From assembly GCA_028715115.1 (NCBI GenBank), contig JAQUSN010000002.1, positions 4,944-68,943 of the forward strand: a stretch of DNA of 64,000 nucleotides, given 5' to 3'. Shown here piece after piece: positions 1 to 48,534 of this stretch. A program made the translations under genes and the position numbers. The DNA comes from Patescibacteria group bacterium (GTDB lineage: Bacteria > Patescibacteriota > Patescibacteriia > UBA2591 > UBA4787). Position 1 is the first letter of the stretch; the number at the start of each line of letters is the position of its first letter. Under the pieces are notes generated by a model, which searched no databases, had not been told where the DNA came from, and saw only the letters and a program-made list of their open reading frames with translations.

Positions 1-2
1 GC

Positions 3-620
3 TATCATTTGATTACCAACGACGAATGGATGGCCATTGCTCGAGACGCGGAACAAGTCCAAGCAAACTGGGCTAACAATCAAATCGGCTCGACCGTGGC
101 TTCTGGCGGCGGCTTAAAACGAGGCAATGTCGGCATTACCGATTCAGCCAGCTACAATGGCGCTGATCCGGAAAAGGGCCTAGGCAGAAATTCCAAAGCT
201 ATGTTGACCTTAAGTAACGGTTCAACTATTTGGGATATTTCTGGCAATGTCTACGAACACGTGTCTTTTACGCCGTCTGGCGCTGACGCTACCCACCAAG
301 AATTGGACCAACCAGACGATGACGATGTTTCAGGTTGGAATTACTATGAATTTACCGCTTTGAATAATAACGGGGCCAATACTTTTACTACCGGCTACAC
401 TGACGGCAAGGCGGTTTTTCGTCCCTCTGACGATACTTGGAATTCAAATTATGGTGTGGGCAAGATTTATGCCAACTCAAACTCAGCCGCTGTCACCGCT
501 CGCGTGTTCGTTCGTGGCGGCAACTGGCACAATACGTCCCGTGCCGGAGTCTTCGGCTTGGACTTGCATTGGACCGCGTCGGGTTCGAGCTACGATGTTG
601 GTTTTCGCTGCGCCCGGTAG
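3..620 (+). CDS. DGR target protein 1 (5'-truncated at window start); FGE-sulfatase / C-type-lectin-fold C-terminal domain carrying VR1
   Basis: The reading frame is open to the window edge. Motifs GNVYEHV and C-terminal VRGGNWHNTSRAG...VGFRCAR are typical of the FGE/CLec fold used by DGR variable proteins. The last ~120 nt match TR1 except at TR adenines. Confidence 0.8.
   Translation, partial: YHLITNDEWMAIARDAEQVQANWANNQIGSTVASGGGLKRGNVGITDSASYNGADPEKGLGRNSKAMLTLSNGSTIWDISGNVYEHVSFTPSGADATHQELDQPDDDDVSGWNYYEFTALNNNGANTFTTGYTDGKAVFRPSDDTWNSNYGVGKIYANSNSAAVTARVFVRGGNWHNTSRAGVFGLDLHWTASGSSYDVGFRCAR
497..619 (+). repeat. DGR variable repeat VR1 (cognate of TR1)
   Basis: The 123-nt alignment with 1683-1805 has ~17 mismatches. 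Every one lies at a position where TR1 has A, for example TR AAT/VR CGT and TR AACTTGAAC/VR GGCTTGGAC. The 3' ends are identical (...GTTGGTTTTCGCTGCGCCCGGTA). Confidence 0.9.
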
Positions 621-642
621 TCCCCGTAGATATTTGGTATTT

Positions 643-662
643 GGCCCGCCAGCAGGCGGGTT
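643..662 (+). other. GC-rich hairpin with 4-nt loop 24 nt downstream of VR1 (DGR target-site hairpin candidate)
   Basis: cccgcc AGCA ggcggg gives a 6-8 bp stem with a 4-nt loop. Placement and shape resemble the hairpins described downstream of DGR VRs. Confidence 0.55.
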
Positions 663-720
663 GGAAATTTGGCTTTCCGACTTAATCTTGTCTGTTCCGC
701 TTCATTTGTATAATTTTTAG

Positions 721-1207
721 AAAATTTTAGAAAATAATTACGCTTTTATTGATGGAGCCAATTTACACATGGGTGTAAAAAGTTTAGGTTGGAAATTAGA
801 CCATAGAAGATTTAGAATCTGGTTAACCGAGAAGTACTCTGTCAGCAAAGCATATATTTTTATCGGCTTGATTCCGAAGAACAAAGATCTTTATACTAAT
901 CTGCAAGAAGCCGGCTTCACTCTAATTTTTAAGGAAGTTGTTTATGATGGTGACGGCAAAGGGCAATTGCGATGCCGATTTGGTCTTAAAGACAACCCAA
1001 GAAGCTTATGAAAATTTATTTGATAAAGCTGCTATTGTTTCCAGCGACGGCGATTACGCTGGGTTAGTAAAATTTCTTCAAGATAAAAATAAATTGGCGA
1101 TAGTTCTTTCGCCAAATTTAGAAAATAAATGTTCGATTTTATTAAAAAGGACAAATGCGCGCATCGCTTATCTTAACGATCAAAAATCAATTTTAGAACT
1201 AAAATGA
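721..1207 (+). pseudogene. NYN/LabA-like (PIN-like RNase) domain gene, disrupted by a +1 frameshift in a GGG run (~961-963) and lacking an ATG start
   Basis: Frame 1 encodes AFIDGANL...LGWKLDHRRF...IFKEVVYDGDGK. The continuation GNCDADLVLK...IVSSDGDYAGLVKFLQDKNKLAIVLSP lies in frame 2 (ORFs 769-1011 and 938-1207). The only in-frame start after the upstream stop is ATT. Confidence 0.6.
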
Positions 1208-1326
1208 AAAAGCCCCCGATGGAGACGAGCTCCATAAGGGTCTTCTTCGTGGTGATAATGCTAGTACAATAGATTAGAGATTAAAGTCAAATTAAAATCT
1301 GTGGATAACCTTTAAAATTATTCAAA

Positions 1327-1662
1327 ATGCTTCAAAATCTACCGATTTTTCAAAAAATTTACGATTTAATCCTTTGGCTGCATCCGGTAATTAATAAATT
1401 TCCCAAGTCGCAGCGCTTTATCTTGGGCCAGCAGACGGAAAATACAGCCTTGGAAATTATCAAAAACGTCATTGCCGCCAACGCCGAAAGAAACAAGACG
1501 GCCTATCTTAAACAAGCCAGTATTGATTTAGATAAATTAAGAATTTTAATTCGTTTAAGTAAGGACTTGAAATTTATCAGTCTCAAACAATATAGCTTGG
1601 CCGCGGAGAAAATTAATGAAGTCGGCAAAATGCTCGGCGGTTGGCTGAAGAGCAGTTGTTAA
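1327..1662 (+). CDS. avd: DGR accessory variability determinant Avd (copy 1; four-helix-bundle family)
   Basis: 111 aa, helical, ending ...EVGKMLGGWLKSS. It is paralogous to the 3129-3482 ORF and lies immediately upstream of TR1. Size and position match the Avd / 23S-rRNA-IVS four-helix-bundle family. Confidence 0.75.
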   Translation: MLQNLPIFQKIYDLILWLHPVINKFPKSQRFILGQQTENTALEIIKNVIAANAERNKTAYLKQASIDLDKLRILIRLSKDLKFISLKQYSLAAEKINEVGKMLGGWLKSSC

Positions 1663-1682
1663 TCAAAGGGGCAAAGTCAAAG

Positions 1683-1805
1683 CGCTCACGTGTTCATTCG
1701 TGGCGGCAACTGGAACAATACGTCCAATGCCGGAGTCTTCAACTTGAACTTGAATTGGAACACGTCGAATTCGAACAACAATGTTGGTTTTCGCTGCGCC
1801 CGGTA
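1683..1805 (+). repeat. DGR template repeat TR1 (adenine-rich on + strand)
   Basis: Asn/AAC-rich pseudo-ORF (NWNNTSNAGVFNLNLNWNTSNSNNNVGFRCAR). It matches VR1 with all differences at TR adenines, and sits 20 nt downstream of avd1. Confidence 0.9.
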
Positions 1806-2055
1806 CTCTTTTTTCTGGCCAGAGCAAAATGTCTATGGACATGAGCCAGCGTCAGAAGACTACGGATTTTGTTCCTCTCCTTAGTAGGTCAAAGCAGTGG
1901 CAGCTAGAGGTTTGACCGAACAGGGAAACCAAAAAGCTCGTACCCTTGAGGAATCAAAGTAGTTTTTTTCGAAATCTTTCCTTAAGGCCAATGGGCTTTG
2001 GCTAAAAATAACAGGACTATTTGTGTTGTCTTGTTGTTTTTAGTCTCCGACCTTT

Positions 2056-3105
2056 TTAATCTTTCAACCACCACCAAAATTGATTTTTGAGATATTGGCC
2101 TAATTTGTAAGTATTAGCATGTGACAATACACCGAGATATGATTGGAGCGATTGTTCGAGCGTCTTCTCGCTAATTATACCATTTTTATATTCTTTAATT
2201 CGGCCCCTTAACTTTCGCATTATTCTTTGTTTCGTTTTAGTTTTGATTAGGCGGTAATAGGGTAGGAGTAGGTGGCCTAGAAAATCAATGCCCTGATCAA
2301 ATTTACGAATGATAATTTTCTTCGGATGAATTTTTAAGAATAATTTTTGCTCTAAAAGTTTTTTCATCGCTTTTAATATTTTTCTTAGATATTTTTTATC
2401 ATTAGCCACGACAATAAAATCATCTGTATAGCGCAAATATTTTTTAATTTGTAATTCATGCTTTACAAATTGGTCAAACTCGTTAAGATAGATATTCGCA
2501 AATAATTGAGAGGTCAAATTACCAATCGGGAGGCCTCTCTTTTTAAATAGATCGGATTGATTAGAGCAAAAACTTTCAATAATTTCCTTAATTAACCACA
2601 TTGCCTTGTCGTCTTTTATCTTTCTGCTGACAATTTCTAATAGAGTATCATGATCCACGCTGGCAAAGAATTTACTGATATCGCATTTGAGGATAAAACA
2701 AGGTTTGGTGTGATTAGCACTAGTAGCTCGTAGAATTTTGGTTAGACAATTCACGGCCTTGTGTGCTCCTTTGTTAATTCGACAAGAGAAAGAATGGCCG
2801 ATAAAGGTTGGTTCAAAAATTGGATTCAAAACAGTAAAAACCGCATGATGCAGTACGCGGTCACGAACCAAGGCTTTGTGAATGTGCCGTTGTTTGGGAT
2901 CGGTAATAAAGAAAGATGTGTATGGGCCATGCTTGTAAGCATGGTTTTGTAAGTCCCGGTACAATTGGAAAATATTGGGCTCTAAATTAAATTCAAACTT
3001 CAGGATATCTGATTTTTTCTTTTTATCTTGGCGAAATTCGTCCCAAGCTGAAAACAGATTTTCCAAAGAGATGATCTTTTCAAACAGATGGCTATAGATC
3101 TTCAT
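2056..3105 (-). CDS. DGR reverse transcriptase
   Basis: 349 aa RT with the YTDDF (YxDD) catalytic motif and LPIGNLTSQLFANIYLNEFD. The SQ substitution in motif 4 is the DGR-RT hallmark. Flanked by TRs and avd genes. Confidence 0.9.
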   Translation of the reverse strand: MKIYSHLFEKIISLENLFSAWDEFRQDKKKKSDILKFEFNLEPNIFQLYRDLQNHAYKHGPYTSFFITDPKQRHIHKALVRDRVLHHAVFTVLNPIFEPTFIGHSFSCRINKGAHKAVNCLTKILRATSANHTKPCFILKCDISKFFASVDHDTLLEIVSRKIKDDKAMWLIKEIIESFCSNQSDLFKKRGLPIGNLTSQLFANIYLNEFDQFVKHELQIKKYLRYTDDFIVVANDKKYLRKILKAMKKLLEQKLFLKIHPKKIIIRKFDQGIDFLGHLLLPYYRLIKTKTKQRIMRKLRGRIKEYKNGIISEKTLEQSLQSYLGVLSHANTYKLGQYLKNQFWWWLKD

Positions 3106-3128
3106 TTTAATTTTTAATAAATAAAACT

Positions 3129-3482
3129 ATGCCCAACGAATTCGACGTTCCCATCTTAAAAAACATCTATGATCTCTACAAAATATTCTATGGTTTTCGC
3201 CACGGTGTTTCCAAACAGGATCGCTACACTATTTGGCAAAAATCAGAGAACCTGATTTTAGAGATTATTGAAGCCATTCTTTTGGCTAGCCAGCAGAGCA
3301 AGATTAATAAAGTGCCAACCCTTGAGCGAGCTAGCGCTAAACTTAACTTCTTGCGAGTTTTTATACGCTTGATGAAAGAAGTCAAAATCATTGACCAGAA
3401 AAAGTATCTAACCTTGCAAGAAGCTGTTGATGAAATTGGCCGGATGCTTGGTGGTTGGTTAAAATCTAGTAAAGATTTTTAA
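3129..3482 (+). CDS. avd: DGR accessory variability determinant Avd (copy 2)
   Basis: 117 aa paralog of 1327-1662 with the same C-terminal ...EIGRMLGGWLKSS. Its start lies 23 bp from the divergently oriented RT start. Confidence 0.75.
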   Translation: MPNEFDVPILKNIYDLYKIFYGFRHGVSKQDRYTIWQKSENLILEIIEAILLASQQSKINKVPTLERASAKLNFLRVFIRLMKEVKIIDQKKYLTLQEAVDEIGRMLGGWLKSSKDF

Positions 3483-3492
3483 GACTTCAATC

Positions 3493-3517
3493 AAAGGGCC
3501 CCTTATGGGGGCCCTTT
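3493..3517. terminator. Perfect 10-bp GC-rich hairpin between avd2 (+) and TR2 (-); candidate bidirectional terminator / DGR RNA structural element
   Basis: The stem aaagggcccc pairs with ggggcccttt across loop ttatg. A T-rich run follows on the minus strand. Confidence 0.55.
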
Positions 3518-3535
3518 GGCTTAGACAGAGAAATG

Positions 3536-3654
3536 ACTTCCGGGCCGCGGACAGACCGATGTTGTCGTTGCGGTTGTCATCCCAGTTGTTGTTGACGTTG
3601 AGACCATTCGCATCGAAGTTGCCGACGTTGACGCGGTTACCGTCCGAAGTGAGA
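3536..3654 (-). repeat. DGR template repeat TR2 (adenine-rich on - strand)
   Basis: The plus strand is T-rich (ttgttgttgacgttg...), so the minus strand encodes an Asn-rich stretch (GNRVNVGNFDANGLNVNNNWDDNRNDNIGLSAARK). It matches VR2 and VR3 with differences only at plus-strand T, i.e. minus-strand A. Confidence 0.85.
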
Positions 3655-3985
3655 AAACTGTCTGTTTTCATCCAAATCTTCAGAAGTTGAGGTTTGCCGT
3701 TCCGTTAAGAATCTATATCCTCTTCTTCTTGTTTACCCTGAGTCGTGGGAAGGGTAGTTTATTCGAGAGTACTCCGATTAAATCAGAGATCTCCACTAAA
3801 AACAGACAAGAAGTTCTGCCTCCATCTTTTTTCACGCGCTATCGCAATCCGTAGAAAGGCGATACTCTGGTGAAGTCTCCCGCTTCCGCCGAAGCTTCGA
3901 CAGGTAGGCAAAAGAAGAGACGTTCGGCGAGGTTAAACCTTGATCTAGCCTTCATTAGCCGAACATTATTATAATATATCAATTT

Positions 3986-4046
3986 TAACAAAAAAGAAAG
4001 AGCCTCCACACAGAGCTACCGGTTGTGGTAGATGTAACGGAGGCTC
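3986..4046 (-). terminator. Rho-independent terminator / conserved 3' element downstream of target gene 2
   Basis: gagcctcc...ggaggctc forms an 8-bp outer stem enclosing an inner hairpin (ctacc ggttgt ggtag). On the minus strand a T-run follows. The block is conserved with 5135-5210. Confidence 0.6.
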
Positions 4047-4085
4047 AAGGATTCAAGAAGTGTCTAGGTCTCGATGACTCAAGAC

Positions 4086-4913
4086 TCAGAACTTCCGGGC
4101 CGCGGACAGACCGATGTGGTCGTAGCGGTAGCCATCCCAGTCGTCGACGACGAGACCATTCGCATCGAAGTAGCCGACGTAGACGCGGTAACCGCCCGAA
4201 GTGAGATCGGAGCAGCGGCCATATCTGGTCGGATTGACGTACTGACCGCTCTTCTTGAAGTACAGCATGGCCTTGGTAACTTCGGTCACAGCCGGCGGTA
4301 CCTCATAGTTGGTCGGCAGCATACTCTGTTGGTCAGCGAAGGTCTTGTCTTCGGAATTCGGTACGATCTCGAGGGGCATCAGCCGCCAACGCAACTTGCC
4401 GGTCGTTCTGACGGCGAAACGCTGGTTGCTGTACCAGGCCTCGGAACTGTACTTGTAGAACCTGGGTTGGCCCGGGGCCGGCTGCAACTGCTGCCACTTC
4501 ATGATGGTCAGCGGAGTGCCGTTGATCCGATCGAGCTCGAGGAAGGCGATGTGCGTTTCGCGAATCGTCTTGCCGGGCACGAAGGGGCACGGGCTGTTGA
4601 GCACTGTCTCGTTCCAGGGGAATCGGGCAATCTCTCGGAGCTGCTTCTTGGTGAAGCGTGCTCCGTAAAGCGCGGCCCAATCGTCAGGACCGAAGAAGCG
4701 TTCGTTACCCATCAGCTCACGGACGAGTTCCAGCGAGATCGGACTCTCGACTTCGCCGCTCAGGAAAGCTTCCGCCACCTTGCGGGCATAGTCAGGGTCG
4801 GTTCGCACACGATCCCAGTGGACCTTCGTCACTCCTCGATCTTGGAGTGCCTTGAGGGTCGATCCGATTTCTCCGAACTCCAGAGTCCAGAGACCATTTT
4901 GGTTTGTACCCAT
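4086..4913 (-). CDS. DGR target protein 2 (C-terminal CLec-like VR2); paralog of target 3
   Basis: 275 aa with C-terminus ...YRVYVGYFDANGLVVDDWDGYRYDHIGLSAARKF. The last ~116 nt match TR2 with A-site substitutions. GC-rich gene (~60%). Confidence 0.8.
   Translation of the reverse strand: MGTNQNGLWTLEFGEIGSTLKALQDRGVTKVHWDRVRTDPDYARKVAEAFLSGEVESPISLELVRELMGNERFFGPDDWAALYGARFTKKQLREIARFPWNETVLNSPCPFVPGKTIRETHIAFLELDRINGTPLTIMKWQQLQPAPGQPRFYKYSSEAWYSNQRFAVRTTGKLRWRLMPLEIVPNSEDKTFADQQSMLPTNYEVPPAVTEVTKAMLYFKKSGQYVNPTRYGRCSDLTSGGYRVYVGYFDANGLVVDDWDGYRYDHIGLSAARKF
4091..4206 (-). repeat. DGR variable repeat VR2 (cognate of TR2; one 3-nt deletion relative to TR2)
   Basis: The 3' end (acttccgggccgcggacagaccgatg) is identical to TR2. 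Internal differences are T to C/A/G on the plus strand. One CAA triplet of the TR CAA-repeat is missing. Confidence 0.85.
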
Positions 4914-5134
4914 GGTACTTACCTCCTGTTGTGTTTGTATTCTCTTTGTCCTTTAGAGACTTTAGAGAATTTGACCTAGGCCGTAGGTCGCGGTCTCATC
5001 TTGGAATAAGACGAGCGTTTTAAAAATCAATTATCTTGATGCCCAAAACGCTCGTCTTATTGTCATCCCCTTACTTATTCTGATTATATTTTATCACATT
5101 TTTCCAAAAAAGTCAAGTTCTAGCTTGATCTTTA

Positions 5135-5197
5135 AGATTAAAAGAAAAGAGCCCTCACCACATGACCCGCCAAGTTTGGCGGATGTAGCGAAGGCTC
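5135..5197 (-). terminator. Rho-independent terminator / conserved 3' element downstream of target gene 3
   Basis: gagccctc...gaaggctc forms the outer stem (7 of 8 bp) with an inner hairpin (ccgcc aagttt ggcgg), followed by a T-run on the minus strand. It shares the motif GATGTARCGRAGGCTCAAGGAWTCAA with 4031-4060. Confidence 0.55.
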
Positions 5198-5228
5198 AAG
5201 GAATCAAAAGGCTCGAGTGTTCGAGGTT

Positions 5229-5993
5229 TTAAGCTTCGAACTTCTGGGCCGCGGACAGACCGATGCCGTCGTCGCGGTAGTCATCCCAGTCGTCGCTGAC
5301 GAGGAGACCATCCGCACCGAAGTAGCCGACGTAGACGCGGTTACCGTCCGAAGCGAGATCACTGCAACGAACGTAGACGCTTTCGAACAAGCGCTTGCCG
5401 GTGGCCAGGAAGTACAGCACCATGGTGTAGATCACCGTCTGAGCGGTGGGTGTGTATTCGTTCTCGGCCAGCAGCGCCTGCTGCTCGGAGTAGGTCTTGC
5501 CGATGGAGTTGTCCACCGGTGTCTTCCGAATCAGTTCCCAGCCGACTTTGCCGGGTTGCGAAGCGAACTTCTGGTTGTTGTACCAGTCCTGACCATAGAA
5601 GACTTTGCCCTTGCCGGCAACCAGGCGACGGATCTCGATGATCGAGGTGCCGAGGTTGGCTACCAGCAGGTGGGTGTTCTTGCAGGCTTCGAGTTCACCC
5701 TCGGTGAACGGCACTTCGGCCAGGGCCTTGATGATTTCGGGGCTCGGAGTGAGTCCGAGATGCTTGGCCGCCTCTTCGATGCCGAGCATGTTCGTGCCCA
5801 TGATGGCACGGGCACGTTCCTGCGATGTCGTCGGCGTAAAGCCGCCGGCGGTTGCGAATGTGGCCAGGCGATCGACGAAGGCGGGGTCGGCGTTGATTCG
5901 ATTGACGATCTGATCGGCGTTGTCTCCGAAAGCAACCCGGAGACGCTGTTCCGCGGCATTGAGATCGCCGGCGGGGACTTGTGTCCATTTCAT
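5229..5993 (-). CDS. DGR target protein 3 (C-terminal CLec-like VR3); paralog of target 2
   Basis: 254 aa ending ...GNRVYVGYFGADGLLVSDDWDDYRDDGIGLSAAQKFEA. The last ~119 nt match TR2 with A-site substitutions. GC-rich. Confidence 0.8.
   Translation of the reverse strand: MKWTQVPAGDLNAAEQRLRVAFGDNADQIVNRINADPAFVDRLATFATAGGFTPTTSQERARAIMGTNMLGIEEAAKHLGLTPSPEIIKALAEVPFTEGELEACKNTHLLVANLGTSIIEIRRLVAGKGKVFYGQDWYNNQKFASQPGKVGWELIRKTPVDNSIGKTYSEQQALLAENEYTPTAQTVIYTMVLYFLATGKRLFESVYVRCSDLASDGNRVYVGYFGADGLLVSDDWDDYRDDGIGLSAAQKFEA
5240..5358 (-). repeat. DGR variable repeat VR3 (cognate of TR2)
   Basis: Same length as TR2 (119 nt). Differences sit at plus-strand T positions (ttg to ccg/tcg/ctg/agg etc.), plus a single C/T difference near the 3' (IMH-like) end. 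Confidence 0.85.
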
Positions 5994-6087
5994 GGCAGAC
6001 TCCTTTCTCTGTTGACCCTTTGAGATTATTGCTGGGCGACTAGATGAGGATTTTGGGCTTACGATCCCTGTTTACGACCTGTCTCGG

Positions 6088-6150
6088 GAATGAGGCAAGT
6101 TATCTAAAGACCATTGTTTAATGATTTCCAGATAACTTGTCTCATTTTTT
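6088..6150. repeat. Palindromic repeat copy C of the AAATGAGACA(C)...TGTCTCATTT family
   Basis: gAATGAGgCAAGTTATC - 26 nt - GATAACTTGTCTCATTTT is an inverted repeat of 17 bp with 2 mismatches. Related elements occur at 14807-14858 and 56692-56826. Confidence 0.5.
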
Positions 6151-6283
6151 CTCTTGAATTCCTAATATATTTTGAGTTGTAAAGAACCTCCTTTGATTCT
6201 TATGCATATATTATAGCACAAAATAGGAAAAAGTCAAGAGCAAATTTTTGGCTTAAAATAAGTAGGGTTTGATGATTTTACGG

Positions 6284-7618
6284 TTATTTATTCTCTTCCA
6301 TTACGGTAATCTTTTTATCTTTGTATTTTAATTTGCTTTTTAGATTAGCCAGTAGCTCCCGTTTGTCTGAGATACCGCCTTCTTTTAAGAGATACTTAGC
6401 ATATTCGCGGATATTAACTTCACTTTCTTCAACCAAGGTTGGCGCGGTTTTGGTATTGCTGTCAACGATTTTTCTTAATTTATTAAATCTTTTAATTTCA
6501 TCTTGGAGCTTAACTCTTATCCCCAGTTCATTGATACTTACAATATCTATAATCTTAAACAATTCGTCAATTAATTCCTCTTCCCTAATATATTTATTTT
6601 TACAGTTTCTATCTTTGGCCCTTGAGCAGCCGTAATAAATATAATGAGCCGAGCTGCCATCTTTGAGGGTTTTCCATTTTTCTTCAGCCGATATTCCTGA
6701 CCCGCAATAGCCGCAAGTGAATAGTTTAGTGAAGGCGAACTCCTTGTTTTCTCGGACGATCTGATCTCTTTTTAATTGTGCTTTGGCCTTTTCAAATAAT
6801 TCCTGAGTGATAATTGGCTGATGTTTGCCGGTATACCAGTTGCCGCTGCCTCGGGGATGTTCAAAAGCTCCATAATAGAACGAATTGTCTAGAATGCGAT
6901 AAATCCCGCTTAGGGTTAGCGGCTTATTGCCTCGAGTATAGAAGTTCAGCTCGAATCTTAGCCAGTTGTACAGCTTAATGCCGGAACAATATTCGTAAGC
7001 AACCTTTTCGAACATTTTTTTAATTATTGGAGCCCTAGCCGGATCAACGACGATCTGGCATTTTTTATCCATCAATTTTTGGTTTAGATATCCAAGGGGA
7101 GCTAGTCCGGGCCATAAGCCCATTTCTACCCTAGTGCGCAATCCTCGTTTAACGTTAATACTGCGATTATCATTTTCCAGTTTAGCTTGCGAACCCAATA
7201 TCATTAACAGAAATTTCTCGTTAGGGTTATTGGTAAATTTTTGGCCAAACGTACGAATCTCTATTAAAAGCTTGGCATCCATTAAATCAACTATTTTACC
7301 CAGATCGCCGGCATTTCTTGAAATTCTATCTGGCGCCCAAGTCAAAATAGCGTTATATTTTCCCTGTTTGATTTCTTCGATAATCTCATTGAAGATCGGC
7401 CTCTGTCCTGCTTCTTTGGCTGAATGCGACTCACGCTTCACGGCCGTGACCTCCAAGTTTTCCTTTTCGGCCAATTGAAACATTTCTTTAATCTGGCTAT
7501 CAATCGACAGTACCTGTCTTTCTTCACTTTCAGTGCTTTTTCTAGCATAAAGGCAATATTTAGCCTTAATTACTTGATTAAGTCCTTGATTTTTTGCTAA
7601 GGTTTTTGTTTGTTCCAT
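6284..7618 (-). CDS. Large serine recombinase (resolvase/invertase N-domain + recombinase domain + zinc ribbon)
   Basis: The N-terminus YCLYARKSTESEERQVLSIDSQ carries the catalytic Ser context. A recombinase domain follows, with a Cys cluster CGYCGSG...YYGCS. It is ~60% identical to 48535-49896. Confidence 0.85.
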   Translation of the reverse strand: MEQTKTLAKNQGLNQVIKAKYCLYARKSTESEERQVLSIDSQIKEMFQLAEKENLEVTAVKRESHSAKEAGQRPIFNEIIEEIKQGKYNAILTWAPDRISRNAGDLGKIVDLMDAKLLIEIRTFGQKFTNNPNEKFLLMILGSQAKLENDNRSINVKRGLRTRVEMGLWPGLAPLGYLNQKLMDKKCQIVVDPARAPIIKKMFEKVAYEYCSGIKLYNWLRFELNFYTRGNKPLTLSGIYRILDNSFYYGAFEHPRGSGNWYTGKHQPIITQELFEKAKAQLKRDQIVRENKEFAFTKLFTCGYCGSGISAEEKWKTLKDGSSAHYIYYGCSRAKDRNCKNKYIREEELIDELFKIIDIVSINELGIRVKLQDEIKRFNKLRKIVDSNTKTAPTLVEESEVNIREYAKYLLKEGGISDKRELLANLKSKLKYKDKKITVMEENK

Positions 7619-7923
7619 AGGTTTTTGTCTTATTGGTTACTATGGAAAGGAATGACAAAACTGCTCAAAGAGTCCAGAGCAGAGGAGTAGACAACCTGTC
7701 GGTAACTAAGCTTCACTTTTTACTTTGTTATGTTAAGATATAAGCACAATTAATTTGCCTAAACCCATGGATTTCTGTGGGCATGGCAATAAAAACCGGT
7801 AAAGGATATTAAGCTCGTCGTCAGAGCTCCTTTACCGGTCATATCCTCGAAAGGGGGTATGGGTAGCGCAAGCTATCGCTGGCGGCGAGCTTTGTGTTTT
7901 CCGCCAAATAGTAATTTTATTTT

Positions 7924-8778
7924 ATGAAAAACAAGGTTATTAATTGGCTATTTATTCTCTGTCTTTTTCTAGTTTCTTTATCTTTGACTGGCTGTTCAAG
8001 CCAGACCACTAATTTAATAAACCAGCCAACAAACAATGTTGTTAATCAAACTAATAGTCCGACAGAAGCAGCAAACGAGGTGGTGCAAAACCTTCAAAAC
8101 AATGTTGTCATTAACAATAAAGATAATAGTGTGGTGGATAATAATCAAATCCCCGACTATTATTCTGTCACTAAGGTGGTTGACGGCGATACTTTTAAGG
8201 TCTCAATCAATGGCTCAGAAAAAAGCATTCGTTTGATCGGCCTTGATACGCCAGAAACTGTTGACCCAAGAAAGCCAGTTCAATGTTTTGGAGTTGCGGC
8301 ATCAAATAAGGCCAAAGAGTTATTGTCTAGCAAAAAAGTAAAACTCGAAGCCGATTCATCTCAAGGCGATCTTGATAAATATGGCCGCTTGCTTCGTTAT
8401 GCTTTTTTGGAAGACGGTACCTTCTTTAACAAGTGGATGATCGCTAACGGTTATGGTCATGAATATACGTACAATTTGCCGTATAAATACCAAACAGAGT
8501 TTAAAGAGGCCGAGAGATCAGCCCAAACCAATAAATTGGGCTTATGGGCCGACGGCGCCTGTGATAGTCAAGCCAATACACAATCCCCAGTTCCGGCCAC
8601 ACCAGCAGCTACGGGGCATGTTTTTTACACCTCATCTTACTACACCTCTAAAACCTATTATTGTGATACAGATTTGGCATGGAAAAATCTTAGCCCAAAA
8701 TACCTGAAACAGTTTTCAAGCGAAGTAGAGCTATCAAAGGTTTATCCTACCAAGACTCTTCACGAACCATGCAAATAG
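7924..8778 (+). CDS. Thermonuclease (staphylococcal nuclease-like, SNase) lipoprotein
   Basis: Lipoprotein signal ...LSLTGCSS. SNase motifs DGDTFKV...IRLIGLDTPE...YGRLLRY. Confidence 0.8.
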   Translation: MKNKVINWLFILCLFLVSLSLTGCSSQTTNLINQPTNNVVNQTNSPTEAANEVVQNLQNNVVINNKDNSVVDNNQIPDYYSVTKVVDGDTFKVSINGSEKSIRLIGLDTPETVDPRKPVQCFGVAASNKAKELLSSKKVKLEADSSQGDLDKYGRLLRYAFLEDGTFFNKWMIANGYGHEYTYNLPYKYQTEFKEAERSAQTNKLGLWADGACDSQANTQSPVPATPAATGHVFYTSSYYTSKTYYCDTDLAWKNLSPKYLKQFSSEVELSKVYPTKTLHEPCK

Positions 8779-9984
8779 TTATCCGTTTGTTGAGCTATTA
8801 TTTTTAGGTGGTGGCCATGGCTTACTAATCATGCCTCCCTCCTTATTATAATCTATAAGATATTCTCGTGTTTTCTCCTTGCTCTCCATGAGCTCAAGGA
8901 AATGGTTCCAGTCTTCTACCGTTACCACCTCTCCATTTGGACCGACGCTTTTTGAGCTATAGGGAGCACTGATGCAAAAATCAGGATGAATATTTCTCTT
9001 TTCTCTCTCTTCAGGACTTAAATATTGACCGAAATATTTTTCATAAAGCGCTGGTGGATAAAATTCGCGAGTTCGAGGGCCGGTTACTAGTAAATATTCC
9101 TGTAGCCAAATTAATTCATCCGAGCAACTGCTTTTTATTCTTTCAATATCTTCGGGTTTGAATTTCTCCGGCCAAAGGTTTCGATCATTATCATCCAAGA
9201 GGGGATAAATGCAGCAGGCAGCATTGGCAATCCGATTCTGAACAATTTCCCTATAAAGCTTCATAATCAATGATGAATTGTCTAATAGATTGCCCAATAC
9301 GACAATGTTGGTTGATTTATCGCCGGCCGGCATAATCTCATTTTTAAACCATTCGCACATCCTTTTGCCTTCTTTGTAATTTTTCGCGGATTGCCTGTCT
9401 TCCAAATCGTCACAAATAATCAGGTCGGGTCGATGCTGTCCGAATTTTATTCCCCTGATATTTTGCCGTAATCCGGCAGCCATAATCATGGCTCCGTATT
9501 TTTTTAGCAAAATATGGTTTGGCCCCCAATCTTCATGATCTTGACGGAAGCCGCCGAAGTCATTATTTAATAGTTCATTGCTTTCCAGTTCGTATTTTAT
9601 ATTTTCCAGATGAAGCTTGGCTTGTTTTTTGTGCTGACTTAGAATCAGCACAAACTTTTTTTGCGGTTTGCCGATGATTGACCAAATAATGTTCGAAAGA
9701 TTCATGATGGTGCTTTTGCCTGAACCGCGAAAAGCGATTATGTTAACCAATCGATATGAGGGATCTTCTGTGATAGTCAGCATCTGTTTGTGGAAAATAG
9801 CCAAAGGATAGCTTAAATGATCAGCCAAGTAAATTTTTGAAAACCAATAGTGACTTTGCTTGGCAAGTTCTTGTCGGAATCGGCGGCTTGTTTTTATCTG
9901 TTCAAAAATGGTCCCAATCGGCTGGGTCTCGTTCCTTCTTGGCACCAGCTCCGTCTGTTTTTGGCGGGATTCCTGATTTGTCAT
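8779..9984 (-). CDS. Phage terminase large subunit (TerL)-like ATPase/nuclease
   Basis: Walker A AFRGSGKST and Walker B LIICDDLED, with C-terminal acidic nuclease-like motifs. It is overlapped upstream by a TerS-like ORF. Confidence 0.75.
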   Translation of the reverse strand: MTNQESRQKQTELVPRRNETQPIGTIFEQIKTSRRFRQELAKQSHYWFSKIYLADHLSYPLAIFHKQMLTITEDPSYRLVNIIAFRGSGKSTIMNLSNIIWSIIGKPQKKFVLILSQHKKQAKLHLENIKYELESNELLNNDFGGFRQDHEDWGPNHILLKKYGAMIMAAGLRQNIRGIKFGQHRPDLIICDDLEDRQSAKNYKEGKRMCEWFKNEIMPAGDKSTNIVVLGNLLDNSSLIMKLYREIVQNRIANAACCIYPLLDDNDRNLWPEKFKPEDIERIKSSCSDELIWLQEYLLVTGPRTREFYPPALYEKYFGQYLSPEEREKRNIHPDFCISAPYSSKSVGPNGEVVTVEDWNHFLELMESKEKTREYLIDYNKEGGMISKPWPPPKNNSSTNG

Positions 9985-10354
9985 ATTCCTCTTTTGCCAC
10001 TTCCGTGGCTATTTTTAACAATTTAATTTGCTCCGGCTTTAATTCTTCATAATACGCTTCTTTTACTGTGTGCAGTTTCTCGGCATATTGCGAATGGTGA
10101 TTCTTAAGCCAATAAATAATGGCCGTGATATTTCCTTTTTTTATCAAGCTGAGCAACTGACTTTCAGCCATATCGTTGATTAGTGACGATCCATCAGAAA
10201 TGGCATCATCGGCTAATCGGGCAAAGGCTTTATCTTCCTTGCGCCAACGATAATAGCTGCTTCTGTTGAGCCCGACCTTTTCACAGGCAAACTGAACTAT
10301 GGGGACCCTCTTTAGTTGCTCAAGCAGATTTCTTTTTATTTCTTTGGTCTTCAT
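9902..10354 (-). CDS. Phage terminase small subunit-like / HTH DNA-binding protein
   Basis: 150 aa with an N-terminal HTH-like segment (FACEKVGLNRSSYYRWRKED). Position immediately upstream of and overlapping TerL. Confidence 0.45.
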   Translation of the reverse strand: MKTKEIKRNLLEQLKRVPIVQFACEKVGLNRSSYYRWRKEDKAFARLADDAISDGSSLINDMAESQLLSLIKKGNITAIIYWLKNHHSQYAEKLHTVKEAYYEELKPEQIKLLKIATEVAKEEYDKSGIPPKTDGAGAKKERDPADWDHF

Positions 10355-11751
10355 AAAACCTTGTGCGCTTTAACTCCGGTTAGCTTTTCCCATCGGTTCC
10401 GAATAACCTCTGCATAGACGGGCGACTTCTCCATTAGATAGCAGCGACGTTTCATCTTCTCGGCAGCGATCAGTGTTGATCCGCTGCCGCCAAACGGCTC
10501 AATAATTAAGTCATTTCTCTTGGTTAAAACCTTGAGATAGGGGATAAGAACTTCAAGCGGTTTGGTTCCGAAGATAATCCCTTGGCCTGAGCTTTTCTCG
10601 TCGGCGGCCGTATATTCGATATAATCGGTGGGGCAATATTTCTTGCCGGCTTCGTAGCTTTCCCAATGCGGTTTGCCGGAAGTGGCGTAAAGAGCGTTTT
10701 CATATTCCTCTTGCAGTAATCCTTCTTCGGGCCCCAAATTCAAATCAACTTTCCCCTGGGTTCCCACGGCGGCAATATCTGTCTTATTGAAGAATTTATA
10801 TTTAGCTGCAAAGCCCTGGCATCTGTTTGGCACATGCCAAGTAATCGTATTTCTGTATTTCCAGTGTTTCTCTAATTCCAACCAAATAGTTTTAAGATTC
10901 TTGGGATTTTCAAAGACAATAATTGAAAAGTCGGACTTTTGAATCTTGGCAACATTAGCCATCCATTTTTCGGTAAAGTCCGGCGGCAATTCATCTGTTT
11001 CCAGATATTTGCGATCTCGCTTTAAACCAAATCCCTCGATTGCTTCGCCGTGCTTCTTTTTGCCTTTTAAATAATCTAAGAGGTAAGGTGGGTCAGTGAA
11101 ACACATATCTGCACTTTCATTGCCCATTAGCCTCAAGACGTCATTTTCAATAGTTGAATCGCCGCACATTAAGCGGTGATTACCTAATTGCCAAACGTCG
11201 CCCCTTTGAATCTCAATTTGAGAAATGTTTAATTTATCCAATTCTTTCTTTAGATCAAATATTTCTGGGCTTTCGTCAATGCCAAAGATGTTATCCATCT
11301 CTTCCGAAGAGAATCCAACGTCGCCCAGCATCTTTTCGCCAAAATCAGCCAAAATGTTCCAATCAAACTCACCGGTGTTTTTATTGAGGCGAAGATTGAT
11401 TTCTTTCTCAAGCTCTAGGCCTGGGATATCAACCCAAACAATGGGCACGGTGGTAAAGCCCAATTCTTTGACAATCTTTAACCGAAAATTCCCGCCTAAC
11501 ACCACCCCTTTGCGGTTTAACGCTGAATTAACAATTAAAGGATCAATTAGTCCGAATTTAGCAATTGATTCTTTTAGATTTTTGCTTGTTTCATCTGACC
11601 AGACTCGTGGATTATATTCACACGGTTTTAGTTGATCAATTGAAACGTACTCGACCTTTAGAATTGACTTCGCGACAGAAGTTTCCATAGGTATTAAATT
11701 AATGATTAATAAATTAAATAAACAAAAGCGACCCAAAAAAGAATTCATCAA
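10351..11751 (-). CDS. ParB-like nuclease domain fused to DNA methyltransferase (N6-adenine/N4-cytosine, beta class)
   Basis: N-terminal ParB-N-like region, a DPPY motif (MCFTDPPYLLDY) and a C-terminal SAM motif I (IIEPFGGSGST). This is the typical phage ParB-MTase architecture. Confidence 0.8.
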   Translation of the reverse strand: MMNSFLGRFCLFNLLIINLIPMETSVAKSILKVEYVSIDQLKPCEYNPRVWSDETSKNLKESIAKFGLIDPLIVNSALNRKGVVLGGNFRLKIVKELGFTTVPIVWVDIPGLELEKEINLRLNKNTGEFDWNILADFGEKMLGDVGFSSEEMDNIFGIDESPEIFDLKKELDKLNISQIEIQRGDVWQLGNHRLMCGDSTIENDVLRLMGNESADMCFTDPPYLLDYLKGKKKHGEAIEGFGLKRDRKYLETDELPPDFTEKWMANVAKIQKSDFSIIVFENPKNLKTIWLELEKHWKYRNTITWHVPNRCQGFAAKYKFFNKTDIAAVGTQGKVDLNLGPEEGLLQEEYENALYATSGKPHWESYEAGKKYCPTDYIEYTAADEKSSGQGIIFGTKPLEVLIPYLKVLTKRNDLIIEPFGGSGSTLIAAEKMKRRCYLMEKSPVYAEVIRNRWEKLTGVKAHKVL

Positions 11752-11961
11752 AAATTGATGTAACCCTTTTTTGGGCCGCGTTGTACATGTTGGAGATCAA
11801 CCTAGGTTGGTGATTATCTTGATTCGATGGCTAATGTTATCGTAGCCTATCGGCGGAATTACGCGGTCTGTATTAAATTGTTATTTATAGTATAAAACAA
11901 GAATATATTTTGGCAAGAAAAGTTATCCACATATCGTGAACCCTGTGAACATAGTATACAC

Positions 11962-11989
11962 TTGACAGTTTTTAAAATGATGTTATGAT
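11962..11989 (+). promoter_or_regulatory. Sigma70-like promoter (TTGACA - 16 nt - TATGAT) for the repressor gene
   Basis: ttgaca at 11962-11967 and tatgat at 11984-11989, directly upstream of the ATG at 11992. It lies in the divergent region between ParB-MTase and the repressor. Confidence 0.4.
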
Positions 11990-11991
11990 AA

Positions 11992-12645
11992 TTGCATATG
12001 ACTATTCATAAAACACAACTTAAATTATTAGAATTAATGAAAACACACAATCTGAATGGCCTGTCTTTGCGTGATATTGGTGAGTTAATTGGGATAAAGG
12101 ATAAACCCCATATAATTAGGCATCATCTTTTACAATTGAAGAAACGAGGACTCATCTATTGGGATCAATCAAAAAAAGAGATTAGAAAAATATCAAAGGG
12201 AATAGAGAGCGATAGCGGTTTAGTTCCCATTCCCATTCTTGGCGCGGCTAATTGTGGCCCGGCCACTCTTTTGGCTGAACAAAATATTCAAGGATATCTT
12301 AGGATATCAAAAAGATTTTTGCCTCGAGTTACAAAAAATATCTTTGCCATTAGAGCCGTTGGTTCATCTTTGAATAGGGCCGATGTTGATCACAAAGGAA
12401 TGCATATTGATGATGGCGATTATGTTTTGATCGATAGTAGTTATCGAAACCCACAAAACAAAGATTATGTTTTATCTGTTATTGATGATGTTGCCAATAT
12501 TAAGAAGTTTATCAGAGAGAAAAATAAAATAACTTTATTATCTGAATCAACAGAAAATATTCCACCCATCTATATACACCGTGATGATAATTATATGATT
12601 AACGGTAAGGTAATCCAAGTAATTAAGAAACCTAAAATAGATTAA
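11992..12645 (+). CDS. LexA/CI-like repressor (N-terminal winged HTH + S24 peptidase domain)
   Basis: An HTH-like N-terminus (LSLRDIGELIGIKDKPHIIRHHLLQLKKRGLI), then an S24-like AIRAVGSSLNRA (Ser) and a later Lys. The divergent orientation from the phage genes is typical of a CI repressor. Confidence 0.65.
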   Translation: MHMTIHKTQLKLLELMKTHNLNGLSLRDIGELIGIKDKPHIIRHHLLQLKKRGLIYWDQSKKEIRKISKGIESDSGLVPIPILGAANCGPATLLAEQNIQGYLRISKRFLPRVTKNIFAIRAVGSSLNRADVDHKGMHIDDGDYVLIDSSYRNPQNKDYVLSVIDDVANIKKFIREKNKITLLSESTENIPPIYIHRDDNYMINGKVIQVIKKPKID

Positions 12646-46547: not shown

Positions 46548-47978
46548 TTAAAATGGTTCTTCGGTTTGGCTTACTGGTTGTTCGCCCGATTGTTCTTCGT
46601 TATATTCATAACTAAATTCTTCTGAAGGAGCAAACTGCAAATTCTTAAAGCTAGCCGTGTGCTCGTCAAAGAACAATTTAACCATGACGCCAGCTGGGCC
46701 ATGGCGATGTTTGGCAACATGAATTTCGGCTACACCCCGCTCTTCAGGCGGGCAGAATTTAATGCCACGGTCAGTGGCCTTGCGATAAATAAACAAAACC
46801 ACGTCGCTATCTTGTTCTAAACTGCCACTTTCTCTTAAGTCTGCTAATTTAGGAATAGCCGGTGTACGCGCTTCAGTAGCGCGAGATAATTGAGAAAGAG
46901 CGATAACCGGGATGTGCAGTTCTCGAGCAATGGCCTTTAAAGCGCGAGAAATAGCGGAAACCTCTTGAACGCGATTGTCAGCCCCTTCGCCGCCTTCCAT
47001 TAGTTGTAAGTAGTCGATAATAATAAGTCCTAGTCCATGTTCAGCTTGTAGTCTTCGGGCTTTAGTGCGGATTTCCATGATATTAGCCATCGGTGAATCA
47101 TCAATAAAAATCGGCGCTTCAGATAAAATATTAATTGAGTCGCCGATTTTTGAAAAGGCGCCTTCGTCGCTTTTTGATAAGGCGCCGGTTCGCATTTTCC
47201 ATAAGTTAATATTGGCCTGAGAGCAGATCATACGATCAACGATTTGTTCACGAGACATTTCCAGGCTAAATATGCCAACCGGAATTTTATGCAAGACCGC
47301 CACTTGGCGGGCGATATCAATTGCTAAAGCGCTTTTACCAACCGATGGGCGAGCGGCTAAAATAATTAAATCAGAAGCTTGTAAGCCGCCCAAAGCGGCA
47401 TCGAGGTCGGAGAAGCCGCAAGGTAAACCGCGCAACTTACCGCCGCTTTTATGAATTTCTTCGATACGAGTGAAGGCATCGCCAAGTACATCTTGGATGG
47501 GCGTGAAATTTTGTTTTAAAAATCTTTGGGAGACGGCAAAAAGTTTTTGCTCGGAACGATCGAGTATTTTATCAACCTGTTCTTCTTCGTCATAAGCCAT
47601 TTTGGTTATTTCGGTTGAGGCATTAATGAGATTCCTTAGAGTTGCTTTGCGTTGGATTATCTGGGCATAAGAAACTACATGAGTAGCACTGGGTACGCCA
47701 TTAGCTAAATCGGCTAAATGGCTTCGTCCGCCGATTAAGTCCAGCTGTCCCTTTTCCTCTAAACGGTTAGAGATACTTAAAATATCAATTGGTTCACGAT
47801 GCTCAAAAACTTCGAGCATAGCTTCGTAAATAATGCGATGAATGTCTTTATAAAAATCATCTGGGCCGATAATATCAGCGATTTTAATAATCGCATCTTT
47901 GTCTATTAGAAGACAGCCAAGCAACGCCTCTTCAGCTTCGATGTTTTGTGGTGGAAGTTTTTCTAGATTATTTTTCAT
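46548..47978 (-). CDS. dnaB: Replicative DNA helicase DnaB
   Basis: N-terminal domain (LPPQNIEAEEALLGCLL), Walker A GARPSVGKSALA, 476 aa. Confidence 0.9.
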   Translation of the reverse strand: MKNNLEKLPPQNIEAEEALLGCLLIDKDAIIKIADIIGPDDFYKDIHRIIYEAMLEVFEHREPIDILSISNRLEEKGQLDLIGGRSHLADLANGVPSATHVVSYAQIIQRKATLRNLINASTEITKMAYDEEEQVDKILDRSEQKLFAVSQRFLKQNFTPIQDVLGDAFTRIEEIHKSGGKLRGLPCGFSDLDAALGGLQASDLIILAARPSVGKSALAIDIARQVAVLHKIPVGIFSLEMSREQIVDRMICSQANINLWKMRTGALSKSDEGAFSKIGDSINILSEAPIFIDDSPMANIMEIRTKARRLQAEHGLGLIIIDYLQLMEGGEGADNRVQEVSAISRALKAIARELHIPVIALSQLSRATEARTPAIPKLADLRESGSLEQDSDVVLFIYRKATDRGIKFCPPEERGVAEIHVAKHRHGPAGVMVKLFFDEHTASFKNLQFAPSEEFSYEYNEEQSGEQPVSQTEEPF

Positions 47979-48077
47979 GTGAGATTTTCCCCATTAAACC
48001 CTTTACAATTTAATTTCTTTATTCTATAATTTTAGAACGTTTTAGACAACTCTCGTTTACACATTTTATCCCCATTT

Positions 48078-48317
48078 ATGCTTGATCATAAAGAAAACAT
48101 TCATGGTTATTTGGTTTATTATGATGACGAGGCGAAGTTGGGCATAGAACATTTGGCTCATGTTTTGAGTTTTGATGAAGCGCGGTCGATGTTTTTAGCC
48201 GCTCATCGTACTTTAGATAAAATAGATTTCGAAGATCGCCTGGGAAGAAACTTTGTTCTTATAGGCAGAATGGATGGCAATTTCGAACTTTATGCACGCA
48301 AAGAAGGATGGTTCTAA
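48078..48317 (+). CDS. Small hypothetical protein
   Basis: 79 aa ORF upstream of tRNA-Lys. No motif was recognised. Confidence 0.45.
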   Translation: MLDHKENIHGYLVYYDDEAKLGIEHLAHVLSFDEARSMFLAAHRTLDKIDFEDRLGRNFVLIGRMDGNFELYARKEGWF

Positions 48318-48332
48318 GTAAAACCAAAATAC

Positions 48333-48406
48333 GCCCCCTTAGCTCAGTGGTAGAGCAGTAGCCTTTTAAGCTATTGATGAAGGTTCGATTCCTTCAGGGG
48401 GTACCA
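48333..48406 (+). tRNA. tRNA-Lys (TTT), CCA encoded
   Basis: gccccct-ta-gctc-agtggta-gagc-a-gtagc-ctTTTaa-gctat-tgat-gaagg-ttcgatt-ccttc-agggggt-a-cca. Confidence 0.75.
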
Positions 48407-48534
48407 AGTAGTGCTAAGTCAAGTGACCGTGAGGGGTCGGCTAAAAATCGACCAAACATTGCCCTTGACTTAATCACCTTAAAAGAAAAACCACGGAATT
48501 TTATCCGTGATTTTTCTATTTTATCTTTACCTTT

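Follow-up and report, generated by a model that had tools for sequence, protein, structure and literature searches.

The described systems closest to the locus analysed here are the diversity-generating retroelement (DGR) of Bordetella phage BPP-1 and the cellular DGRs of the candidate phyla radiation (CPR). The BPP-1 element (mtd-VR / avd / TR / brt) carries a typical motif in its reverse transcriptase (RT), the accessory protein Avd, adenine-specific differences between template repeat (TR) and variable repeat (VR), a C-terminal VR in the target, an invariant GC-rich 3' segment in TR and VR, and a hairpin after the VR, and in all these features the present locus resembles it. The CPR elements (clade 2, Roux et al. 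2021, PMC8144416) are cellular, restricted to CPR and known from aquatic metagenomes, as is the present one; RTs of DGRs cluster by phylum (PMC8144416). A deviation in GC content or codon usage of the whole DGR neighbourhood has been used as a sign of transfer (PMC5758913, PMC8144416, PMC11661182, PMC10053308), and these four papers report no cassette in which target and RT are split in composition. Here we describe such a split in a DGR of a Patescibacteria group bacterium, which occupies the left 6 kb of a 64,000-nucleotide stretch of contig JAQUSN010000002.1 (assembly GCA_028715115.1; hereafter the window) and consists of one RT gene, two avd genes, two TRs and three targets. Targets 2 and 3, both served by TR2, are GC-rich genes beside AT-rich RT and avd genes. 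We show that this GC-rich codon usage is a trait of the whole gene family across AT-rich Patescibacteria and not of this genome on its own, and that exchange of target units between genomes and cassettes postdates the divergence of their neighbours.

In the first-pass annotation, positions 3500-6060 were read as one sharp block of about 60% GC. The region has 53.8% GC against 37.5% for the rest of the 64-kb window, so that the outer limits and the contrast stand, but the contrast is composite and not one uniform block. The GC content is 55.2% in TR2 (3536-3660), 43.5% in the non-coding segment 3661-4085, 58.7% in the coding sequence (CDS) of target 2, 40.3% in the intergenic segment 4914-5228, with a trough of 28% at 5051-5150, and 60.0% in the target 3 CDS, beyond which it falls to 28% by position 6100. 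Because the spacers between them are AT-richer, the high GC coincides with the two target CDSs; TR2 owes its GC-richness to being a copy of the VR, and the high GC is confined to this copy and the two CDSs.

The sliding-window, codon-usage and tetranucleotide comparison proposed at that stage bore out the exceptional character of both CDSs. Relative to 1194 other 800-nt windows (mean GC 0.374, sd 0.034; maximum 0.476, at target 1 on the left edge), their GC contents gave z = 6.2 and 6.6 and their tetranucleotide distances z = 10.9 and 11.6. The GC content at third codon positions (GC3) was 0.75 for target 2 and 0.76 for target 3, against 0.24-0.46 for the other measured open reading frames (ORFs), except for target 1 at 0.53, the next highest; no other ORF of the window exceeded 0.53, and target 1 (51% GC) is its sole other GC-elevated stretch. 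Both the RT gene (GC3 0.36) and the avd genes (GC3 0.43-0.46; GC 38.1%) are host-like. The codon usage of the targets is inverted relative to the host, with CTC/CTG, AAG, GAG, ATC and TTC in place of TTA, AAA, GAA, ATT and TTT. All three codon positions are shifted, GC at first and second positions (GC1, GC2) and the amino-acid composition being changed as well. At third positions, targets 2 and 3 hold A at 0.11 and T at 0.13-0.15, against 0.29 and 0.35 in the host; in target 1 only A is depleted (0.14-0.17 against 0.29) and T is unchanged. A gradient of GC3 away from the VR was looked for and none was found.

Two collection scans gave 86 more homologous loci, referred to below by L-numbers. 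A profile search gave at least 1233 family members, of which every named one is from Patescibacteria; the target 2 protein matches exactly a protein on a 308-kb contig of a metagenome-assembled genome of a Patescibacteria group bacterium, and 22 homologues accompany it. No matches were obtained when a viral contig collection was scanned with the target-3 subfamily. In locus L001, which carries a target 73% identical to target 2, both targets have 60-61% GC beside avd and RT genes at 35-36%. The median excess of the gene over its flanks was 15.6 GC points (60 loci with enough flank), and GC3 averaged 0.69 in targets against 0.42 in their hosts, the target being higher in 44 of 45 gene/host pairs (Wilcoxon p = 1e-13). 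The separation of host-like RT and avd genes from deviating targets, noticed from the window sequence at the outset, recurs in 14 cassettes, in which the difference from host GC3 is -0.02 for RT, 0.00 for avd and +0.29 for the target, RT and avd following the host (r = 0.71). An assembly artefact was rejected, since the same layout is present in independent ENA, Logan and JGI contigs; the arrangement target / ~400-nt spacer / TR / avd(-) / RT(+) is common to about 25 loci.

Target GC3 tracks host GC3 with a logit-logit slope of 0.71 +/- 0.12 (0.78 without one contig of 68% GC), and a constant-bias model was better than a constant-composition model by 21 units of the Akaike information criterion, with a median bias B of 1.31 (interquartile range 0.99-1.49). 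The copies form a GC3 continuum from 0.32 to 0.84, within which 22 of the 33 copies in hosts of GC3 0.33-0.51 cluster at 0.74-0.79. Low-GC3 members are clades residing in the most AT-rich hosts, and two copies that are 83% identical (L036 and L011) lie 0.15 apart in GC3, in step with their hosts. Among the relatives of target 1, which are of the formylglycine-generating enzyme (FGE) type, the excess varies, GC3 being 0.70 in L092 against 0.44 for its RT, and 0.69 in L093 against about 0.55. Locus L050 (7231-10828) carries a target on each side of RT and avd. Its downstream t2-like copy is a natural control: the body has a host-like GC3 of 0.32, the VR has 0.58, and the VR matches a TR with 17 of 18 mismatches at adenines, so that TR-driven rewriting keeps only the VR GC-rich. 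The proposal that GC-richness is needed for DGR targeting was ruled out by this copy with its host-like body and intact TR-matched VR.

Many pairs of loci share only about 1.1-1.3 kb at 84-89% nucleotide identity between unrelated flanks. The shared piece consists of the gene with about 100-270 nt upstream and 100-280 nt downstream, and spans the promoter hexamers, the conserved leader and the terminator. As judged from sequence, each target is predicted to be a self-contained unit of about 1.2 kb, in which a sigma-70-like promoter and a conserved, structured 5' leader precede a CDS whose VR is C-terminal, and a terminator hairpin follows. A retro-copy of mRNA length was discarded as the mobile unit, for the shared segment contains the promoter hexamers. 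Between the syntenic loci L008 and L013, divergence at four-fold sites (d4) is 0.18 for the target and from 1.2 to saturation for eight flanking genes; between L017 and L020 it is 0.32 for the target against 0.94 for RT; and between the window and L001 it is 0.47 for target 2 against 0.83 for RT, target 3 and RT both being at about 0.8. Slow synonymous evolution as the cause of low target divergence was also rejected, since in the recent, vertically related pair L017/L022 the target (d4 0.34) matches its neighbours (0.18-1.09, median ~0.47). RT co-diverges tightly with avd (rho 0.82) and weakly with the target (rho 0.29; Mantel p = 0.006). From the discordant divergence and this weak co-divergence it follows that targets are replaced or exchanged more often than the core of RT, Avd and TR RNA; recombination is elevated in targets relative to their neighbours, as at a hotspot of GC-biased gene conversion. 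The earlier description of this DGR as chimeric therefore holds in a refined sense, namely that targets are exchanged independently of their neighbours. It fails for the TR/target module as a foreign unit, because TR2 lies in a non-coding RNA conserved with avd and RT and because the exchanged unit is a single target gene.

The L008/L013 pair also differs in its DGR core. L013 (11211-12011) retains the target and part of the spacer found in L008 (7615-9280), avd and RT are absent and no TR was detected there; either recent loss of the core or its gain in L008 would give this contrast.

We put at roughly 0.5 the probability that these genes form a horizontally exchanged target pool held GC-rich by a gene-specific, GC-favouring bias. 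Such a fixation bias, specific to the targets and of about 1.3 on the logit scale (roughly 1.0-1.5), would act on top of the AT-biased mutation of each host. Its likeliest source would be GC-biased gene conversion accompanying an unusually frequent recombinational replacement of target alleles, and the alternative source would be selection on synonymous sites; recombination-linked conversion is favoured because the targets are recombining genes, because all codon positions shift, and because A and T shift equally. Synonymous changes polarised by parsimony, counted from A or T to G or C (W>S) and in reverse (S>W), numbered 108 and 221 in the targets, corresponding to per-site rates of 0.078 and 0.063, and 195 and 99 in RT, the mirror image. 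Allowing for the bias of parsimony toward common-to-rare changes, targets and RT each look close to an equilibrium of their own. A latent-class fit gave the high-GC3 clades an equilibrium GC3 of 0.66 (0.57-0.75), their hosts being mostly at 0.33-0.51. Between the window and L001, four-fold-site GC is 0.72-0.81 in the targets against 0.46 in RT despite a divergence of about 0.8 (RT, target 3). By a rough two-state estimate, amelioration at the host rate would have required an ancestral GC3 above 0.9.

Several observations weigh against a pool maintained by such a bias. Within the exchanged unit, promoter, leader and intergenic sequence have only 39-41% GC, with the trough of 28%, which is a difficulty for a blind conversion bias because it should raise them too unless function holds them; no GC effect is seen in non-coding DNA inside the exchanged tract, where functional constraint could mask one. 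The fitted equilibrium lies below present GC3 (0.66 against 0.75, and 0.40 against 0.54), and some decay is therefore under way. Copies in Patescibacteria of 52-57% GC are as close to window target 3 as the syntenic L001 copy, or closer. The bias is not universal, as seen from the host-like body of the TR-matched L050 copy and from the FGE-type targets L094 and L095, which in very AT-rich genomes stand near host GC3 with almost no excess; universality of GC-richness among CPR DGR targets was rejected on these last two. Parsimony and the two-state model are crude, part of the divergence may have arisen in other hosts, and the latent-class fits to RT and avd composition were constrained too poorly for use as a control.

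The main rival to a bias-maintained pool is a source-sink relation, in which the family would be native to GC-richer Patescibacteria (~52-60% GC), with a composition near that of its hosts there, and its units would be imported into AT-rich lineages, beside resident cores of RT, Avd and TR RNA, repeatedly and faster than they ameliorate, so that no gene-specific bias would be called for. Target-specific exchange is clearly evidenced. Members do occur in hosts of 52-57% GC, where target GC3 is 0.78-0.88 and host GC3 about 0.6-0.8, and their third-position profile equals that of FtsZ, FtsA and similar genes in L100. Target 3 and the target-3-like gene of L001 are less close to one another than to the L099 copy and the L096 copy, respectively. 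The excess of S>W over W>S changes, the fitted equilibrium under present GC3, and the GC3 continuum, which includes a fully ameliorated copy, all point the same way. Even in the GC-richer genomes, however, the targets exceed their hosts (0.88 against ~0.62, 0.78 against ~0.60), and almost none of the 45 sampled hosts of t2-type genes is GC-rich. The tight grouping of copies at 0.74-0.79 and the scaling of target GC3 with that of the host (logit slope 0.7-0.8) speak against a composition brought in independently of the host, and in L017/L022 the ratio of S>W to W>S changes is 23:11, where the host regime would give about 5:1 (our estimate from site counts, with host GC3 of ~0.44). Repeated import is, on balance, unlikely as the main cause. 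That a GC-rich organism from outside the host lineage supplied the TR/target module in a single recent capture, as first proposed for this region, is hardly credible. Such a capture would account for the atypical GC, GC3 and tetranucleotide composition and for the serine recombinase and other mobile-element genes nearby, but the same layout and split recur in L001, L002 and L026, which are independent contigs from ENA, Logan and JGI, as well as in numerous cassettes that are more distant, and TR2 sits in a non-coding RNA conserved together with avd and RT. The search of protein databases for the phyletic origin of the targets, suggested with that proposal, led to Patescibacteria and to no foreign source: the named homologues are all from this phylum, no viral contig matched, the closest relatives do not lie in a compositionally matching foreign taxon, and the excess, present in 44 of 45 pairs, is family-wide and scales with host GC. 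We infer that the GC-richness is neither a recent foreign capture nor a by-product of adenine mutagenesis. The latter, either as mutagenic reverse transcription over the whole gene or as removal of adenines to protect the scaffold, is very improbable, even though all three window targets are GC-elevated and target 1 is depleted in A3 with T3 unchanged. In targets 2 and 3 and in the family, T3 is depleted as much as A3 and no gradient runs from the VR, which also disposes of the constraint toward A-poor sequence suggested earlier; the individual targets end in terminators of their own and the TR RNA is apparently transcribed separately, the body of the TR-matched L050 copy is host-like, and for many GC-rich copies no TR lies within 10 kb.

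Selection on codon usage for expression, whether as translational optimisation, deliberate use of rare codons or a stable GC-rich mRNA, would explain why the excess is limited to the CDS while leader and promoter are not GC-rich, why FtsZ has a higher GC3 than its neighbours in some Patescibacteria loci, and why target four-fold-site divergence is below that of RT in some pairs. A GC3 shift of 0.3-0.4 is far beyond the usual effect of translational selection. For Lys, Glu and Gln, G-ending codons are preferred (AAG 78%, GAG 63%, CAG 72%) although tRNA-Lys(UUU) is present in the window, GC1, GC2 and the amino-acid composition deviate as well, and the synonymous rate is not reduced in L017/L022, so that expression seems an improbable cause. 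Another proposal starts from the opposite strand. Both strands are stop-free across target 2 as well as target 3, and on the plus strand ORFs 4074-4979 and 5217-6023 each cover one entire gene exactly in register, antisense stops corresponding to sense TTA, CTA or TCA; were these ORFs real overlapping genes, the need to keep both strands open would force a GC-rich composition. Against an average of 2.0 antisense stops in members with GC3 above 0.7, neither window gene has any. However, just 6 of 71 family members keep the antisense frame open, and this non-conservation already contradicts the proposal; TTA, CTA and TCA are depleted no more than other A-ending codons, and the translations look low in complexity, like those of shadow ORFs. 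The plus-strand ORFs were rejected as genes, in line with the initial view of them as artefacts, and an overlapping-gene origin of the composition has practically no likelihood. The minus strand carries the real genes because there are conserved protein homologues, a C-terminal VR and A-to-N mismatches that read on this strand. Finally, DGR activity itself might leave a compositional footprint over the whole gene, through frequent cDNA- or recombination-mediated rewriting coupled to GC-biased repair or through RT-dependent retro-conversion of whole units. We consider this decidedly doubtful; if it were true, the targets, and not RT/Avd, would be driven to a GC-rich equilibrium, and a GC island of gene size in an AT-rich genome would be the mark of a present or former DGR target.

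The assignment of the locus to DGRs was based on the following features. The RT has an RVT_1 domain with an I/LGxxxSQ-type motif (IGNLTSQ) and a YxDD motif (YTDD), and two bAvd genes accompany it. Read on the minus strand, 14 of 15 mismatches between TR2 and the target 2 VR, and 14 of 17 between TR2 and the target 3 VR, fall at TR adenines; differences between TR1 and VR1 are likewise at TR adenines, A-specific mismatches were found in about 28 related loci, and the VRs of paralogues and homologues differ at TR-adenine positions. Target VRs are C-terminal, ending 2-11 nt short of the stop codons, and share with the TR an invariant GC-rich 3' segment resembling the initiation of mutagenic homing (IMH) element, GGTCTGTCCGCGGCCCGGAAGT. 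Hairpins follow the VRs of target 2 (z = -4.3) and target 3 (z = -7.1). By these defining features, the system is classified as a Patescibacteria cellular DGR of clade 2 of PMC8144416. The target 3 VR and TR2 are equally long, and the target 2 VR is one codon shorter, at an AAC position, which could reflect slippage in the AAC run or a rewriting of target 2 that is no longer faithful.

Targets 2 and 3 are paralogues with 34% identity (BLASTP E = 8e-33). Their proteins gave no Pfam match, a profile search of PDB sequences gave nothing meaningful, and the AlphaFold2 model of target 2, although confident (pLDDT 90.5), found no match in PDB with E below 1 by Foldseek. Target 1 has a weak Pfam FGE-sulfatase match at the C-terminus. 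The three targets belong to two unrelated families: target 1, on the plus strand, is of the FGE/C-type-lectin type, and targets 2 and 3, on the minus strand, are members of the t2/t3 family. All are served by a single RT, with two avd genes and two oppositely oriented TRs around it (1327-3660), and RT and avd2 are divergent, with start codons 23 nt apart. The coordinates are collected in Table 1.

Table 1. Features of the DGR and adjoining sequence, in window coordinates.
Feature	Position	Strand	Evidence and composition
Target 1, C-type-lectin / FGE-sulfatase-type variable protein; may run past the left window edge	9..620	+	GC 51%, GC3 0.53
VR1, in target 1	497-622	+	TR1/VR1 alignment
avd1 (accessory variability determinant)	1327..1662	+	Pfam bAvd E = 7e-28; GC 38%
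TR1, template for target 1	1683..1808	sense = plus	87% repeat with 497-622; differences at TR adenines
DGR reverse transcriptase, 349 aa	2056..3105	-	Pfam RVT_1 E = 3e-23; IGNLTSQ and YTDD; GC 34.6%, GC3 0.36
avd2	3129..3482	+	Pfam bAvd E = 5e-19; 40% identity to avd1 (tblastn); GC 38%
GC hairpin between avd2 stop codon and TR2 3' end	3492..3518	.	-22.7 kcal/mol, z = -3.4; kept in 14 cassettes
TR2, template for targets 2 and 3	3536..3660	sense = minus	Repeat family; GC 55.2%
Putative non-coding leader of TR2 RNA, ~300 nt, upstream of TR2	3661..3990	-	Blocks conserved across 14 cassettes; GC 43.5%
Long hairpin downstream of target 2, then U-run (3990-3999)	4000..4046	-	-33.5 kcal/mol, z = -4.3; conserved
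Target 2, 275 aa	4086..4913	-	VR at 4088-4212; GC 58.7%, GC3 0.75
Predicted target 2 promoter TTGACT-17-TAAAAT (5088-5116) and structured 5' leader	4914..5116	-	Promoter scan, leader alignment, covariation; GC ~41%
Terminator-like hairpin and U-run downstream of target 3	5149..5197	-	-40.5 kcal/mol, z = -7.1
Target 3, 254 aa; in abundant ~255-aa subfamily	5229..5993	-	VR at 5240-5364; GC 60.0%, GC3 0.76
Predicted target 3 promoter TTGACT-16-TATAAT with extended TG (6210-6237) and structured 5' leader	5994..6237	-	Promoter scan, alignment, covariation; GC ~39%
Antisense shadow ORF over target 2, 301 aa, not a gene	4074..4979	+	In register with minus-strand codons
Antisense shadow ORF over target 3, 268 aa, not a gene	5217..6023	+	In register with minus-strand codons
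Large serine recombinase adjoining the DGR	6284..7618	-	Pfam Resolvase, Recombinase, Zn_ribbon_recom

The spacer between target terminator and TR is 276-490 nt long and contains several blocks conserved in the window and 13 other cassettes, the RTs of the cassettes compared being just 51-76% identical to the window RT. An AT-rich, promoter-like stretch near 3950-3990 ahead of the TR2 leader was recognized by eye only. A dedicated non-coding RNA, convergent with avd and apparently transcribed separately, seems to carry a long conserved leader and to have the TR at its 3' end. The hairpin at 3492..3518 is likely to be the terminator for both convergent transcripts, and that at 4000..4046 looks like an intrinsic terminator, although it could instead be a DGR target-site hairpin.

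Ahead of the targets lies a structured 5' leader, conserved and about 150 nt long (4914-5080 and 5994-6205, minus strand), which is also located upstream of those in L001, L006, L009, L017, L034 and many other loci. It consists of a 22-bp hairpin (ATGAGACGAGC...GCTCGTCTCAT), a small GC hairpin, a nested CTCTCT/AGAGAG hairpin, an A-rich linker and a ribosome-binding site; some leaders have large loop insertions. The first hairpin shows compensatory double changes at 13 of 22 pairs among 21 sequences. The leader could be a riboswitch-like or DGR-related cis element. An Rfam search of window positions 1-7000, covering the leaders and the TR2 RNA, gave no match at E up to 1.

The window is a segment of a Patescibacteria chromosome, and its other genes include those for ClpB-like protein, DNA polymerase III delta', NrdD, MurA-like protein, DnaB, FeoB and MacB, together with six tRNAs. 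Genes for serine recombinase, SNase, ParB-methylase and S24 LexA-like peptidase are located beside the DGR, up to about 12645, and genes of the mobile-island type likewise surround the L001 cassette; the stretches compared are 6284-12645 and 46548-49896 in the window and 1-9000 and 17900-20831 in L001. The L001 island abuts DnaB and a serine recombinase, and a homologous DnaB / tRNA-Lys / recombinase junction is found in the window about 40 kb away. The DGR cassette seems to ride on an integrative element.

Among the 20 GTDB loci, those with titles reading 'Gammaproteobacteria' are contigs with 45-49% GC flanks, and L008 and L007 have the cassette or two-target layout. L007, L008 and L013, titled 'uncultured Gammaproteobacteria', carry a Patescibacteria-type cassette, and such titles are probably binning or labelling errors. 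A contig labelled Gemmatimonas (L025, 68% GC) carries a 46%-identical copy, which may be a genuine non-CPR homologue.

The pattern points to a regime of their own for DGR targets of Patescibacteria, which would be exchanged as small autonomous units and be kept GC-rich against the mutation bias of the host. Should selection be the cause, it would point to a requirement on target DNA or mRNA. Gene-sized GC islands together with the conserved leader RNA could help to find remote or orphan DGR targets in CPR genomes. A composition deviating from the host is routinely taken to indicate recent DGR transfer; for the present target family this rule of thumb fails, because the deviation affects single genes inside the cassette and has been conserved through deep divergence.

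Compared with the BPP-1 element, the window system has one RT with two avd genes, two TRs of opposite sense and three targets of two families. Unlike the canonical avd-TR-RT transcript, TR2 appears to belong to a non-coding RNA with a leader of about 300 nt, convergent with avd, and RT is divergent from avd; the targets carry predicted promoters and structured leaders of their own, and the codon usage of the target CDSs is opposite to that of RT, Avd and host. We have not found described either a stable gene-sized composition split inside a DGR cassette or an independent mobility of target units. Lawrence and Ochman are said to have proposed the amelioration model for horizontally acquired genomic islands. 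The window targets resemble such islands in being atypical in composition, located near a recombinase and transferred independently of their neighbours. Unlike in acquired islands, the anomaly has the size of a gene, recurs within one phylum across a family with no fewer than 1233 members, follows host GC in a scaled manner and survives extensive synonymous divergence. Lassalle et al. reportedly described GC-biased gene conversion for bacterial genes that recombine (2015), and the targets agree with it in that they recombine most, have the higher GC3 and show a symmetric effect on A and T. In contrast, the target effect stops at the CDS boundaries, and at about +0.3 in GC3 it is, to our knowledge, far larger than that of GC-biased gene conversion elsewhere. 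If recombination-linked biased conversion is indeed the cause, this target family would represent, as far as we know, an unusually strong and well-delimited bacterial case.

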